From: Candidatus Woesearchaeota archaeon | Lineage (GTDB): Archaea; Nanobdellota; Nanobdellia; Woesearchaeales; GW2011-AR4 | Direction of reading: 5' to 3' | Assembly (NCBI GenBank): GCA_016181305.1 | Contig: JACOZN010000002.1 | Coordinates: forward strand, 1 to 64,000 | DNA: 64,000 bases | In this document: positions 7,802 through 23,275 of the stretch, one piece after another | Layout of the letters: each line of letters opens with the position of its first letter | How positions within the stretch are numbered: position 1 is the stretch's first letter | Program-made: the position numbers and the translations under genes | Notes under the pieces: model-generated | Told to the model about the DNA's origin: nothing | The model's database searches: none | Seen by the model: only the letters and a program-made list of their open reading frames with translations

Positions 7802-8806
7802 ATGCTCGTTTACTGGTTTCTGCCCATGATTCTGCTTCTGGGTATTGTGACTTCTTATGAAGATATAAAGTTCGGAAAGATAAGGAACAAGTGGGTTTTG
7901 ATGGCGATTGCTTATTCAGTTATTGCTTATGCATCTCTTTTACTGCTTGGGAATGCATATGGCTTAACTATAGATTCAATTTTTCGCATTGCATTTAACG
8001 GGCTTTGGAGGGCAGGCGACGCAAAGCTGTTTTTTGCTTTTGCTGTTTTAGTGCCGATTCGCTTAAAGGGGTTTTCTCCATTTTTTATTATTTTAGCTGC
8101 AACATTTGTGCCGGTTATGGTATATTTTTTGGCGCAGATTTTTTTAAAGATGGGCTATAAAGAAAAGATATCTCACTTTAAAAGGGCCCTTAACCCCAAA
8201 AACATGCTTAGGATAGCGCTGTTCATCTTTGGCGTTTCGTGGCTGGCACAGATTTCCCTGAATTCTTTCGGGTTAAGGGGAAACATATTTCTGCTGCTGC
8301 TAATAATGTACTTGCTTTACAATTTTGTTGAGAAAGTGCTGAGATTTGATTTTGTTTATATCGCATTCGCTGTATCTTTGGCGCGGATATTATTTGACAA
8401 AAGCATCTACACTTTTAGCTTTTTACCCGGGTTTTTGGCATTGCTGCTGCTATTTTTGATTGTAAGGGTGTTTGTCGTATCAATGGGCATGAAATACTTT
8501 TCTAACGAAGTGCAGCTCAGCCAGCTAAGGGAAGGCATGATTCCTGCGGAAGTAATATATTTTTCCAAAGGCAAATATTTCAAGAGAATGAAAAGCTTTT
8601 CAATAATTGGCGAGGCAAAAGCAAAGGGCGGATTGCTGTTTAACCCAAATGCGCTGGGCAAAAATGAAATTAAAAGGCTCAAATCCTTGCAGAGAAGGCT
8701 GCCATTCGGGACTTTAAGGATTCAATCAACAATGCCATTTGCTCCTTTCCTATTTTCAGGCGTGCTGCTTACAATTATTCTGAGGCTTTTCGGTATTTTT
8801 ATTTAG
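7802..8806 (+). CDS. A24-family prepilin/class III signal peptidase (EppA/FlaK-like)
   Basis: Two catalytic Asp motifs (TSYEDIK..KIRNKW and WRAGDAKL), many TM helices and C-terminal MPFAPFLF. Confidence 0.85.
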   Translation: MLVYWFLPMILLLGIVTSYEDIKFGKIRNKWVLMAIAYSVIAYASLLLLGNAYGLTIDSIFRIAFNGLWRAGDAKLFFAFAVLVPIRLKGFSPFFIILAATFVPVMVYFLAQIFLKMGYKEKISHFKRALNPKNMLRIALFIFGVSWLAQISLNSFGLRGNIFLLLLIMYLLYNFVEKVLRFDFVYIAFAVSLARILFDKSIYTFSFLPGFLALLLLFLIVRVFVVSMGMKYFSNEVQLSQLREGMIPAEVIYFSKGKYFKRMKSFSIIGEAKAKGGLLFNPNALGKNEIKRLKSLQRRLPFGTLRIQSTMPFAPFLFSGVLLTIILRLFGIFI

Positions 8807-8841
8807 CAAAATTTATAAAAGATTAGAGATACCATTTTCTT

Positions 8842-9213
8842 ATGGAAAATTTTGAGATAAAAGACGGCAGCGTATTTGTCTCCGTAAACCCGAAAATATA
8901 CCCTTTGGACGTCATTTTTTCGGCTTCCTATATTTTTACAGACAAAAACTACATTGTTCTTGACGGCAATCCTGAAGAAGAAGTAATTGTTGAGATAAAG
9001 CCAAAGGAAAATGCCATTGATATGGAAAAAATAGCCATGGAATTCAGCAATGAGCTTGTCAATTACGGCTCTTATGCCGTGCAGCTTGCGAGAAACGCTC
9101 ATTTGAGGGAGCACATACTGCACAGGGTTCTTCAGACAGCAGGCATGCATACCGGGCATCAGCATGCGCAGGAAACAGGAAGTCTTGAAAATTCCAAGCC
9201 GTGGAAAAAATGA
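8842..9213 (+). CDS. His-Xaa-Ser system HxsD-like protein
   Basis: VNPKIYPLDVIFSASYIFTDKNYIVL and EFSNELVNY..LREHIL resemble HxsD; lies next to an HxsB-like gene. Confidence 0.7.
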   Translation: MENFEIKDGSVFVSVNPKIYPLDVIFSASYIFTDKNYIVLDGNPEEEVIVEIKPKENAIDMEKIAMEFSNELVNYGSYAVQLARNAHLREHILHRVLQTAGMHTGHQHAQETGSLENSKPWKK

Positions 9214-20591: not shown

Positions 20592-20618
20592 TATTATAAA
20601 TAAAAGTTATATACTTAG

Positions 20619-21233
20619 ATGAAAAAAAAGAGGATTTTGGTACTTTTTGTATCTCTGATTTTCTTTGCAGTTTATTTAACTATAAATGTTAATGCCCAAA
20701 GCTGTGATTGCAATCCCGAGTGCAGCGCCGGGCAGAGCGAATATGGTGGAAATTGCGGTCCTTGCGGCAGCGTGATGAGGAGAGATTGCGAAGGGAGCAC
20801 TTGCAACTGGTTTGGATGGTACTGCCAGAATAATGCTCCAGCCAATTATGGGCAGTCATGCAATTGCGGCGCATGCGGATGTGGTGGTACAATAAATTGT
20901 GCCGGTTCTTGCTCTGATCCAAATGGTCGTTCTGCATCTGACCCAACTCCACCTAATTATGGGGCACCTTGCGGCGCTTGTGGCAGGGGCAGAATAGACT
21001 GCAATGGAAATTGCATTGGCGACTATTCAAACTGCGGCTCTGCTGGCTGGTACAACACAGGCTCACATGCGGCGGAAACTGCCAGTGGCAGACAGGGCAG
21101 AACTGCAACACACAGGATGGATGGTACGGCGGCGGCAACACCCAGACAGCATCTTGCGGCAGCACAGACAACGACGCCTCCTCTGAATTCAGGAATTATG
21201 GCTGCTCTGGCGGCTCATGCACCTATTCTGTGA
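20619..21233 (+). CDS. 5' part of a frameshifted Cys-rich secreted/surface protein (true frame ends near 21065)
   Basis: Signal peptide ending VNA-Q; Cys/Gly-rich until YNTGS, then out-of-frame sequence. Confidence 0.7.
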   Translation: MKKKRILVLFVSLIFFAVYLTINVNAQSCDCNPECSAGQSEYGGNCGPCGSVMRRDCEGSTCNWFGWYCQNNAPANYGQSCNCGACGCGGTINCAGSCSDPNGRSASDPTPPNYGAPCGACGRGRIDCNGNCIGDYSNCGSAGWYNTGSHAAETASGRQGRTATHRMDGTAAATPRQHLAAAQTTTPPLNSGIMAALAAHAPIL

Positions 21234-23275
21234 CGCAAACAGCAGATTGTGACGGCTCAGACGGCTGGTACGGCGGAGGCAACAATGCAGGCTGCGGCTC
21301 TGACCCAAACTCTGCATGGAATGACTATTATGTGACGGCAAACACAGGCTCCTGCACTTCAACAACAACGTGCTCGGGCACTGGCAGCACCAATTGCGAC
21401 AGCAATGATGTCTGCAACAACAAGTGCGAGGGAACTGTGTTTACCTCAGTGCCTCCGATGAAAGACTATTATGTTGTTTCAAACTCAAATTCATGCACAT
21501 CAACAACAGACAGCCCTGCAACAGAAGACTGCGCAACTAAAGCAAGCACTGACAGCGACAACTCTCCAGTAGCCTACACAATTCCAGGCACTGTAACAGA
21601 TTACAGCACATGCACGCTTAGCGGCTGCACAGGCACAACTTATTCAGATTCATGCTCAGCAACCATTTTGACAGAATACGGCGCATCAGGCTCTTCTTTC
21701 ACATCATCAGCATATGAATGCCAGAATTTTGAATCAAGCTACTGCTCAGGCGACAGGTACTTCAGGAATGAATGGGCATGCTCAGGCGCTCCGGGCGCAT
21801 GCACAGACGCAGCAGACACCCAAATAGGCACTAATGCGGATGGTGACTTAAAGGATAAGGAATGCGGCGACAGCTTATGCGACAATGCAGCCGGTGTTTA
21901 TGACTCGACAAAAACTTCTACTGAGATAAACTGCGCAGACAACTTGGACAATGACTGTGACGGCTTGAGAGATTGTTCTGATTCAGATTGTGCTGGCAAA
22001 TCTGGACAAGGCGGTGTATTATGCTGCCAGACAGCATCCAACTGCGTGCAGGACGACTGCAAGACAGAAAGCTGTGTAGCCAATTCATGCCAATACACAA
22101 ACAGGAATGCCTGCGATGCAGCAGAATGCACTGCTGGCAGTTACTGCAATTCCGCAGGAGGAGACTGCAAAAACCCAGACCAGGACAGCAGTGTATGCCT
22201 AAATTGTGTATCAGACAGCACAGCCGGCTACACATGGTCATGGGGCGCAAGCAAGTTTGAAGACGCTGGAAAAGCATATGGGCCAGAATTGTTCAACAGC
22301 AACAACGCAGGCTGCACAGCAGGAAGCGGCGGCACATGTTTTGACAGTACAGGAAACACAGCTACTCATAAAACTCCATTAGCAACAGGCAACTGCTGCG
22401 GCGATGACCCAAATGAGTTCTATAAGTCTGACTATTATGGCTCGGAGTGCGTAAGCAGCCTTAACGATTGTGTATGGAGCACAGGCGACGCACAATCATC
22501 GGACTCAGGCAATCCGGGATGGTGGTGCTACCTTGGCAAATGGGACGAATGCACTAAAAAAGCAGACATAGGCAAGCACTTTGGAAGCGTTGCATGCGCA
22601 GGGGCAGGCACTGGCTGGACTCTGAACCCATTGCCGGAAAACCAGTATGGGCCAAACACATGCTCGGACGGCCTAGACAATGACGCTGATGGCCTTATAG
22701 ACTGCAATGACAGCGACTGCAGCGGCTCTATAACAGGCACGGTCAAAAATCAGGAGCAACAGCCTATTGCATCTGCTGATGTAAATTTAAAGAAGGATTT
22801 AGCTACAATAAATTCAACTACAACGTCACAGGCTGGAACTTACACTTTAAGTTCTGTAAGCTGCGGCAACTATAATTTGATTGCATCACATGCAGATTAC
22901 GCGCCGCAGACAAAAAGCAATGTGAATGTTCTGCCAGCGCAGCAGATAACCATAGACTTCAGCCTGGCTTTAGGCACTTCCTGCGAAACTGACTGTACTT
23001 TTGCGGCAGATGAAATAATACATGCATCTTGCGATGGCAAGGGCGGCTGTGCTTTCTATGACAGCATTGCCAAGGCAGCCTGCGACAACTCAAAGCCCGG
23101 CTGGGCAAGGGATTATAATGAAACGCACTATATAACATGCGCTTCCGGCGCTCCGCAGCCAAAGGTGGAGATCGAAGCAAGCCTAAGCTGCGAAAGCGGC
23201 ACTCTTGTTAAGGTTACGAGAATAGTTATCTATAACGGCGAGCCTGTAAAGCTCGTTGTTGCAACCTGCGGCTAG
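20969..23275 (+). CDS. 3' part of the frameshifted Cys-rich surface protein (DNDCDG-type motifs, carboxypeptidase-regulatory-like Ig domain)
   Basis: In-frame content begins at 21065 (TCGGNCQW); CADNLDNDCDGLRDCSDSDC and CSDGLDNDADGLIDCNDSDC; SITGTVKN..GNYNLIAS. Confidence 0.8.
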   Translation: MRRLWQGQNRLQWKLHWRLFKLRLCWLVQHRLTCGGNCQWQTGQNCNTQDGWYGGGNTQTASCGSTDNDASSEFRNYGCSGGSCTYSVTQTADCDGSDGWYGGGNNAGCGSDPNSAWNDYYVTANTGSCTSTTTCSGTGSTNCDSNDVCNNKCEGTVFTSVPPMKDYYVVSNSNSCTSTTDSPATEDCATKASTDSDNSPVAYTIPGTVTDYSTCTLSGCTGTTYSDSCSATILTEYGASGSSFTSSAYECQNFESSYCSGDRYFRNEWACSGAPGACTDAADTQIGTNADGDLKDKECGDSLCDNAAGVYDSTKTSTEINCADNLDNDCDGLRDCSDSDCAGKSGQGGVLCCQTASNCVQDDCKTESCVANSCQYTNRNACDAAECTAGSYCNSAGGDCKNPDQDSSVCLNCVSDSTAGYTWSWGASKFEDAGKAYGPELFNSNNAGCTAGSGGTCFDSTGNTATHKTPLATGNCCGDDPNEFYKSDYYGSECVSSLNDCVWSTGDAQSSDSGNPGWWCYLGKWDECTKKADIGKHFGSVACAGAGTGWTLNPLPENQYGPNTCSDGLDNDADGLIDCNDSDCSGSITGTVKNQEQQPIASADVNLKKDLATINSTTTSQAGTYTLSSVSCGNYNLIASHADYAPQTKSNVNVLPAQQITIDFSLALGTSCETDCTFAADEIIHASCDGKGGCAFYDSIAKAACDNSKPGWARDYNETHYITCASGAPQPKVEIEASLSCESGTLVKVTRIVIYNGEPVKLVVATCG

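Follow-up and report, generated by a model that had tools for sequence, protein, structure and literature searches.

Bacterial His-Xaa-Ser (HXS) systems, first described functionally in 2026, are antiphage systems: in E. coli, HxsB, HxsC, and HxsD mature and N-terminally process the exported protein HxsA, which acts in the periplasm, and the processing protease is unknown (PMC13128918). Of the HXS systems counted, 99.7% are in Pseudomonadota (Li et al., Nat Commun 2026, PMC13128918). Systems of the HxsA3 type (NF038309 and NF038315), found in other Woesearchaeales and on a Peregrinibacteria contig, typically have HxsC-like partners and cores whose ends are H-x-S-[SW/Y] repeats, and their HxsB is active (23 of 23). 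Two further systems rely on a radical S-adenosylmethionine (rSAM) enzyme with a SPASM domain. In the archaeon Methanococcus voltae, the enzyme CrpC (TIGR04463) puts ranthionine crosslinks into the leader-bearing Cys-repeat protein CrpA (PMC13692751). The ACGX system (TIGR04340), known by annotation only, pairs a SPASM enzyme with a short peptide carrying closely spaced repeated Cys; a literature search on it returned nothing relevant.

Here we compare with these systems a gene cluster at positions 7802-23275 of the window, i.e. a stretch of 64,000 nucleotides (contig JACOZN010000002.1, positions 1 to 64,000) from a small symbiotic Candidatus Woesearchaeota archaeon whose genome assembly (G000) is 1.07 Mb long and 78% complete. 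The cluster is probably a derived representative of a family of HxsA3-type precursor-maturation clusters in DPANN archaea, working by the mechanism proposed below, and this variant of HXS has not been described before. An earlier note on this DNA, made from the letters alone, had taken the cluster for a rewired Hxs system; that reading is largely right, with the correction that the rewiring is a lineage-wide architecture and that only the dead HxsB, i.e. an HxsB homologue without Fe-S ligands, is special here. Nearly all long open reading frames (ORFs) of the region lie on the plus strand with short gaps, and the only minus-strand genes are a toxin-antitoxin pair, as the note had said. Every gene it listed is found at its coordinates, and hidden Markov model (HMM) searches back the families: among the profiles it had proposed (TIGR03976-03978, PF04055, and PF13186), those for HxsD, the HxsB homologue, and the rSAM/SPASM enzyme all find their gene, and the one for HxsC does not. 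The genes are:

7802-8806, plus strand: A24-like aspartyl peptidase paralogue (PF06819, E 1.2e-4; two Asp motifs)
8842-9213, plus strand: HxsD (TIGR03976, E 1.5e-11, 44.5 bits, cut-off 50)
9201-9431, plus strand: HxsD_rel, a second small HxsD-like protein (NF038315, 46.6 bits, cut-off 41)
9433-10677, plus strand: dead HxsB (pseudo-HxsB), without Fe-S ligands (TIGR03978, E 1.2e-32, 113 bits, cut-off 370)
10663-11468, minus strand: DUF3368 (PIN-like)/UPF0175 toxin-antitoxin pair (Pfam, E 7e-11 and 5e-14)
11828-12628, plus strand: gluzincin-like protein with HETTH...EGLA and no signal peptide (motifs; weak PF13485 match, E 0.009)
12682-12999, plus strand: precursor peptide, 105 aa (NF038309, HxsA3, E 3.8e-8, residues 3-37)
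13103-14632, plus strand: secreted two-domain gluzincin-like protein with a Tat-like SRRTVL signal (translation motifs)
14666-15826, plus strand: membrane-anchored type I solute-binding protein (Peripla_BP_6, PF13458, E 3e-21)
15844-17544, plus strand: long rSAM/SPASM enzyme (PF04055, E 1.5e-22; PF13186, E 8e-12)
17588-18778, plus strand: family 4 glycosyltransferase, GT4 (Glycos_transf_1, PF00534, E 7e-19)
18783-20591, plus strand: PQQ-type beta-propeller with signal peptide and C-terminal anchor (PF01011, E 1.5e-52)
20619-23275, plus strand: Cys-rich secreted surface protein with an apparent frameshift (CarboxypepD_reg and acidic double-disulfide repeats in 20969-23275)

As in bacterial HXS (HxsDBCA, TIGR03976-03979), HxsD comes before an HxsB homologue in the cluster, which further shares a low-complexity repeat core, a predicted exported precursor whose N-terminus would be processed in dependence on Hxs proteins, and a patchy accessory distribution. 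It differs in its archaeal host, an HxsB without Fe-S ligands, the failure to find HxsC, Gly-Cys in place of His-Xaa-Ser repeats, and the lack of a peptidoglycan-binding domain, and it adds a second HxsD-like protein, the A24-like peptidase, the long SPASM enzyme, and the GT4. Among the four features that define HXS, HxsD is present and an active HxsB, HxsC, and a His-Xaa-Ser repeat precursor were each not found, and the cluster also falls below the ACGX cut-off. It nonetheless has HxsD and the HxsA3 leader in common with HXS, and is Hxs-type without being a canonical member. With HxsA3-type systems it has in common the HxsD and HxsD_rel pair, a leader in which a hydrophobic segment comes after KKKIxSFLxxEEGKISK, and, in archaea, the A24-like neighbor, and it departs from them in its dead HxsB, SPASM partner, and Cys-rich core. 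The combination of a SPASM enzyme with a peptide of closely spaced Cys recalls ACGX, but the leader is Hxs-type and no ACGX-peptide model matches at E values up to 10, in a search whose low-complexity filtering may mask one. Likewise, the cluster resembles CrpC/CrpA in joining an archaeal rSAM/SPASM enzyme to a leader-bearing Cys-repeat substrate; CrpC, however, belongs to another family and has its own RiPP recognition element (RRE), whereas here recognition would pass to HxsD and the dead HxsB.

The precursor (12682-12999) starts with an HxsA3-type leader (KKRLKSFILEEEG-KISK) that scores 33 bits on NF038309 against a 65-bit cut-off. A hydrophobic segment, the motif HVSAG, and a Gly-Cys repeat core follow, i.e. 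GCGCSC three times and then more Cys/Gly-rich sequence, with an 18-bp tandem repeat in the DNA and without HxS repeats. A leader with a Cys-repeat peptide, as first noticed in the letters, is thus present, and it can now be specified as an HxsA3-type leader on a non-HxS, Cys-alternating core. No other NCBIfam model matches the precursor at E up to 10, a search in which low-complexity filtering may mask a match to an ACGX peptide. The antisense ORF 12669-12992 was considered as a real gene and rejected, because the plus-frame leader is conserved across 14 loci.

Alignment of 14 such leaders, each from a different genome, gives the common form xPxxKKxIxSFLxEEG-KISK, with Gly19 invariant, and in all 14 precursors a hydrophobic stretch of ~16 residues follows, ending in a VxA[QSA]-like (AxA-like) site. 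The identical leader type precedes true His-Xaa-Ser repeats in Woesearchaeales (L040, L075, and L079) and on a contig of Peregrinibacteria (L069), which belong to the candidate phyla radiation (CPR), and it precedes Cys/Gly or Thr/Ser/Cys repeats in the genus of the window and a few deeper lineages—i.e. a constant leader carries hypervariable cores. HxsD, HxsD_rel, and, in this lineage, the dead HxsB are conserved along with it. In addition, four ORFs in the family of the window, spread over three genomes (G006 L041, G303 L095, and twice G230 L096), join an HxsD domain directly to the leader, which ties HxsD to the leader. Some of these fusions continue into a Hint domain, and G036 carries a leader and Cys core fused to Hint; such intein-like fusions suggest a self-cleaving release of the modified core. 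The fusion ORFs lie at L041:1-1926(-), L095:9664-10251(-), L096:18263-19492(-) and 9608-10237(-), and L043:913-1596(-). A further precursor, L065:7251-7769, for which the database gene call is in the wrong frame, has the same leader on a (TTS)n and (GT)n core, and its cluster includes a long SPASM enzyme, a GT4, B12-rSAM enzymes, and a methyltransferase.

Both HxsD-like proteins claimed for the cluster are confirmed, HxsD with a score just below its cut-off and HxsD_rel with one above, and HxsD orthologues in relatives are recorded with PF27806. The ratio of nonsynonymous to synonymous substitution (dN/dS) is 0.08 for HxsD against its G015 counterpart, 0.03 for HxsD_rel, and 0.15-0.18 in pairwise comparisons of the dead HxsB; across these three genes and the A24-like gene, all four of them intact, pairwise values span 0.03-0.32. 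The dead HxsB is therefore under purifying selection and not decaying.

The HxsB of the window has 3 Cys only and no CxxxCxxC. We aligned it with four orthologues of the same genus and six active relatives, and the five proteins of the genus have identical lesions: the CxxxCxxC loop and the LDGP...NR segment are deleted, the GGE motif is gone, and most SPASM Cys are missing. The triad is absent from all 18 database cluster representatives of this clade (32-100% identity; 3-6 Cys each) and CxxxCxxC is retained in 23 of 23 HxsB homologues from other lineages in a phylum-wide sample, which argues for a single old loss event in this lineage. The dead HxsB is thus a whole clade, and among the surveyed loci it is limited to this genus and close metagenomic relatives. 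Its orthologues remain full length down to 32-39% identity. The AlphaFold model (pLDDT confidence 86) has an RRE-type N-terminal domain of three strands and three helices, followed by a six-unit beta/alpha barrel and a SPASM-like tail. Of the sactipeptide and ranthipeptide maturases (e.g. CteB and PapB), CteB has the closest fold (Foldseek best match 5WGG, E 3.6e-13), and TigE, anSME, SuiB, and ChlB match as well. The claim of a persisting HxsB without its Cys triad is therefore upheld by homology (TIGR03978), missing ligands, selection, and a predicted RRE-rSAM-SPASM fold. Complex prediction with a 50-residue leader scores 0.01 against a mark of 0.32, and counts neither for nor against binding. 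A search of the genome for HxsC with TIGR03977 returns only a generic 49-bit match, to the SPASM enzyme itself; because the genome is only 78% complete, this does not prove that HxsC is absent.

The SPASM enzyme is the sole intact rSAM enzyme in the cluster. It has CNLRCKHC, and its SPASM region holds 8 Cys; residues 1-350 form the catalytic part and a 216-aa C-terminal domain follows. The Pfam matches listed above bear out the intact enzyme and GT4 that had been proposed. As is typical of sactipeptide and ranthipeptide loci, a maturase with a full set of Cys ligands is found near a Cys-containing leader peptide, the precursor lying 2.8 kb upstream. We placed the enzyme against named families by HMM scores and gene context. 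Its orthologues and their shorter relatives score 150-190 bits on TIGR04340, and the cofactor-maturase models give (score/cut-off) 140/500 for AhbD, 120/515 for NirJ, 119/650 for AhbC, 98/381 for PqqE, and 100/265 for MftC. For AhbC/D, NirJ, and PqqE, with which a grouping would refute the reading of the earlier note, the enzyme thus stays below every cut-off. The closest solved relatives are PqqE, CteB, and SkfB.

Orthologues of this enzyme (560-580 aa, 43-62% identity) are found on six independent archaeal contigs, and five of these carry an active HxsB together with the A24-like gene, HxsD, and, in most cases, HxsD_rel. The genes of L068 run HxsD, HxsD_rel, HxsB, SPASM enzyme, a 285-aa protein, and the precursor, which puts the SPASM enzyme in the position of HxsC. 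GT4 lies directly downstream of the enzyme in the window and on 4 of the 6 contigs (the P0037 and P0038 loci, L065, and L067); a toxin-antitoxin pair separates the two genes in G036, and in L066 GT4 is on the opposite strand ~1.7 kb away, with a B12-rSAM gene between. GT4 and the long SPASM enzyme are thus a conserved pair, which recurs in many DPANN Hxs-type clusters where HxsB is still active and HxsC is sometimes present too. As such, the proposal that HxsA and HxsC had been replaced here by a Cys peptide and a SPASM enzyme stands insofar as HxsC was not found and the core is Cys-rich, but the SPASM/GT4 pair is no local replacement.

The type of maturase follows the type of core. Where the core is Cys/Thr-rich and the flanks are readable, the long SPASM enzyme is present at 6 of 6 loci, and it is found at none (at least 30% identity) of ~13 HxS-core loci, where HxsC-like enzymes are found instead; the loci are related, so these counts are descriptive only. 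Cys- or Thr-rich cores therefore go with the long SPASM enzyme, and His-Ser cores with HxsC-like enzymes. The 216-aa domain that ends the SPASM enzyme shares homology with the N-terminus of a G005 methyltransferase fusion, and it has 8-12 Cys in deeper orthologues and one in the window. Its model (pLDDT 82) has no clear fold match: Foldseek returns nothing at E <= 0.001, and VIA-align gives Z ~5 to partial TIM barrels and STAS domains. The domain may be a docking module; a degenerate second half of rSAM/SPASM type is another possible reading. Separately, a protein in a related multi-rSAM cluster (L067:3356-4960) combines Radical_SAM with a weak Peptidase_MA_2 match, which would link MA-type peptidase domains to these pathways.

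The first gene of the cluster belongs to the A24 family, as the note had it, but it is a paralogue dedicated to this system and not a chance pilus neighbor. In the alignment of the A24-like proteins, D73 (GDAKLF) is invariant and D21 (SYED21) nearly so, and 7 of 10 orthologues match PF01478 and 7 of 10 PF06819; membership in A24 is supported by both Asp motifs and these profiles, with the window copy only borderline on PF06819. A sequence profile of the family finds no solved homologue, only a spurious match at E 0.26. The gene is present in 15 of 60 relatives, nearly the same set of genomes as the HxsB homologue, and adjoins HxsD in ~16 of 26 surveyed loci (taken from 29 HxsD_rel-positive genomes among 301 in the phylum); in G058 it is immediately beside the precursor gene. 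A separate, shorter canonical A24 gene (50-65 bits) is found elsewhere in 53 of 61 genomes and, on one contig, directly upstream of the A24-like gene. That the A24-like gene tracks HxsB, adjoins HxsD, and coexists with a canonical A24 gene elsewhere argues for a dedicated paralogue. We also considered it as the prepilin peptidase of the pilus and rejected this, since its distribution follows HxsB rather than the pilus. The 78%-complete genome yielded no canonical PF01478 prepilin peptidase, despite a full type IV pilus locus at 23256-32164. The pilin/Tad genes reported downstream are indeed there: a T2SSE ATPase (27345-28802), T2SSF proteins (28795-30638), and pilins with KSQAALEFL-type signals (30700-32164).

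The A24-like protein resembles archaeal class III signal peptidases (PibD, FlaK, and EppA; PF01478/PF06819) in its two catalytic Asp motifs, its Arc_PepC-type C-terminal domain, and its presumed substrate, in which a hydrophobic helix comes after a charged N-terminal segment. It differs in that it is a divergent additional paralogue (334-390 aa) whose companions are Hxs rather than pilus genes, and its proposed site, EEG/KISK, is unlike pilin signals. The window copy is the sole close orthologue of 334 aa, the others having 347-352 aa; the missing stretch reads AMLALAVGFALWHM in the G015 orthologue (window 7802-8806 vs L018:4732-5775).

The two parts of the cluster have partly separate distributions. 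In G015 (91% complete) and G014, the A24-like, HxsD, HxsD_rel, and dead HxsB genes are kept and followed by toxin-antitoxin genes, and the queries used detected no precursor or SPASM enzyme there, so that the two halves are separable. Among the 37 genomes of the genus that we searched, dead HxsB is found in seven, the SPASM orthologue in five, and both in four, a co-occurrence above independence, although the genomes are kin. On synteny, for which the earlier note had proposed a survey of DPANN and CPR genomes, the SPASM/GT4 pair accompanies A24-like, HxsD, and HxsB genes on independent contigs, and the halves can part.

In the window, the toxin-antitoxin pair is an insertion between the two halves and outside the system. 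Such pairs directly follow the dead HxsB, in either orientation, at window 10663-11468, L018:7625-9482, L025:11323-13102, and L029:9393-10168, often with an AAA_14/DUF4143 gene, and the site appears to be an insertion hotspot. Gene fragments also occur nearby, i.e. a C-terminal piece of dead HxsB with stop codons (G015) and an N-terminal rSAM piece at L017:13984-14079 (G036). The neighborhood is rich in toxin-antitoxin, HEPN/NTase, and AAA_14 genes, as is typical of defence islands. Upstream of the cluster, a nucleotidyltransferase (6752-7579; Polbeta/NTP_transf_2) with MNT-like PADLOC matches to PDC-S09/PDC-M05A is probably an MNT-type toxin-antitoxin or defence-island gene; PADLOC otherwise reports generic rSAM similarity to viperins in the cluster.

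The remaining genes belong to the system with varying certainty. The gluzincin-like genes exist and carry the motifs that the note had described, but the family call rests on HExxH...EGLA motifs and one weak Peptidase_MA_2 match (PF13485, E 0.009). The protein at 13103-14632 has HEITH in its first domain and no HExxH in the second, matches nothing in Pfam or NCBIfam, and its membership is uncertain. A secreted peptidase recurs at this place, and it is M23-like in G005, G022, G036, and the P0142 contig; M23-type genes stand beside Gly/Cys-rich precursors at L019:4233-5402, L036:216-1328, and L043:169-858 as well as in P0142. Enzymes of the M23 family typically act as Gly-Gly endopeptidases, a specificity that would fit Gly-rich cores. 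A Peripla_BP_6 protein adjoins Cys/Gly precursors at four loci, i.e. the window and the G005, P0142, and P0144 contigs. A PQQ propeller and a Cys-rich surface protein are both present as the note had claimed, but their membership is doubtful. The propeller is syntenic in the close relative G036 only and absent from deeper clusters. The surface gene reads in two overlapping frames (20619-21233 and 20969-23275) with an apparent 1-nt frameshift near 21064, which comparison with the G006 homologue places just past ...GWYNTGS; the break, near 21060-21070, may reflect a pseudogene, an assembly error, or slippage. In G006, the homologue adjoins an HxsD-leader-Hint fusion.

Taken as an HxsA3-type maturation cluster, the locus suggests the following mechanism. 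HxsD, HxsD_rel, and the dead HxsB would form a non-catalytic scaffold that binds the leader; the long SPASM enzyme would modify core Cys, most likely with thioether-type crosslinks, and GT4 would add a sugar to the core or a derivative. The A24-like peptidase would then cut after the invariant Gly19 at the cytoplasmic face, as the hydrophobic segment enters the membrane. This cut would remove the recognition motif and leave the core outside the cell, anchored or released, where the anchored binding protein and the neighboring peptidases, which are gluzincin-like in the window and M23 in relatives, could handle it. The scaffold role, crosslinks, glycosylation, and use by an episymbiont that the note had put forward are, like this mechanism, predictions. 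For the biological role, our leading guess, by analogy with the bacterial system, is an envelope-located antiviral barrier, and metal or thiol chemistry or cell-cell contact may be involved instead. A complete DPANN surface-peptide route, in which the dead rSAM scaffold and HxsD hold the precursor, a SPASM enzyme with a docking domain crosslinks it, GT4 glycosylates it, and the A24 paralogue releases it as an antiviral or host-contact barrier, is possible but doubtful.

A number of observations weigh against placing the cluster in this family with this mechanism. The mechanism is built on genes, and the chemistry of the archaeal members is predicted only. The poly(Gly-Cys) core has few classical thioether acceptor residues, and the SPASM enzyme fits no named family and has no RRE of its own; its best NCBIfam model, the ACGX-system rSAM TIGR04340, gives 190 bits against a cut-off of 400. 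The cleavage site at Gly19, a guess from the leader alignment, would be unlike the KSQ/AALEF pilin signals of the same window. The A24-like copy of the window is itself borderline (PF06819 22.7 bits, cut-off 23.4; no PF01478 match) and lacks ~13 residues in the helix preceding the catalytic GD motif. With the queries used, neither a precursor nor a SPASM orthologue was detected in G015 and G014, and in G022, which has a Cys-core precursor, neither an HxsB nor a SPASM orthologue was found. Finally, the toxin-antitoxin insertion parts the two halves in the window.

The last of these points also speak for an alternative in which the Hxs half (7802-10677) is a decaying remnant, the SPASM enzyme alone matures the precursor, and adjacency is inherited history. 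Besides the four-gene loci of G015 and G014, the insertion that splits the cluster, and the internal deletion in the A24-like copy, it can draw on the gene fragments nearby (the dead-HxsB piece in G015 and the rSAM piece in G036) and the loss of Cys from the SPASM C-terminal domain in this lineage. We consider it unlikely, given that the four genes are intact and under purifying selection (dN/dS 0.03-0.32), that dead-HxsB orthologues are full length even at 32-39% identity, that the leader such proteins should recognize is still conserved on Cys-core precursors, and that HxsD-leader fusions exist in the same family. Very unlikely is that what the SPASM enzyme and GT4 make is not a peptide but, e.g., a cofactor, or a small molecule or lipid with added sugar, with the Cys-rich ORF encoding an unmodified secreted or metal-binding peptide. 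AhbD and NirJ are among the next-best NCBIfam models after ACGX, the best GT4 models (BshA, TuaC, and MshA) act on small molecules or wall polymers and not on peptides, a quinoprotein-like propeller follows GT4, and the SPASM enzyme is without an RRE domain; yet the cofactor models lie far below their cut-offs, PqqC and PqqD were not found in the 78%-complete genome, and the closest solved relatives are peptide maturases. Furthermore, on independent contigs the enzyme stands where HxsC would, with HxsD, HxsB, and precursors carrying the leader as neighbors, and its presence tracks core type.

A last alternative concerns the product, i.e. that the mature Cys-rich peptide is a thiol- or metal-handling device (metallophore-like or Fe/S-related) recaptured by the binding protein, and not antiviral. 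Methanobactin-type RiPP operons (for peptides made on the ribosome and modified after translation) pair a precursor with a binding protein, a precedent that we count in its favor. Peripla_BP_6 genes beside Cys/Gly precursors at 4 loci and a thioredoxin-fold Redoxin at one point the same way; however, Peripla_BP_6 proteins usually bind amino acids or amides rather than peptides, and no ABC permease or ATPase adjoins the binding protein in the window. Methanogen Crp proteins, with Cys repeats, are induced on pyrite (PMC13692751), but the sole functionally tested member of the wider system is antiviral (PMC13128918), and the toxin-antitoxin, HEPN/NTase, and AAA_14 genes of the neighborhood are those of defence islands. 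As such, we find this alternative quite improbable.

The assignment to an HxsA3-type family in DPANN archaea has several implications. The same leader and HxsD logic serves widely differing cores and enzymes in DPANN archaea and CPR bacteria, and the dead-HxsB clade provides a clean case in which to ask if an rSAM maturase can survive as a pure recognition subunit. The dedicated A24-type protease is a concrete candidate for the cutting and export of such precursors, and, if the surface-peptide route is true, it would name the class of protease that the model of bacterial HXS lacks. A SPASM enzyme and GT4 acting on poly(Gly-Cys) substrates would be new chemistry if confirmed. The hosts are hard to culture, and the compactness of the cluster makes heterologous expression a realistic approach.

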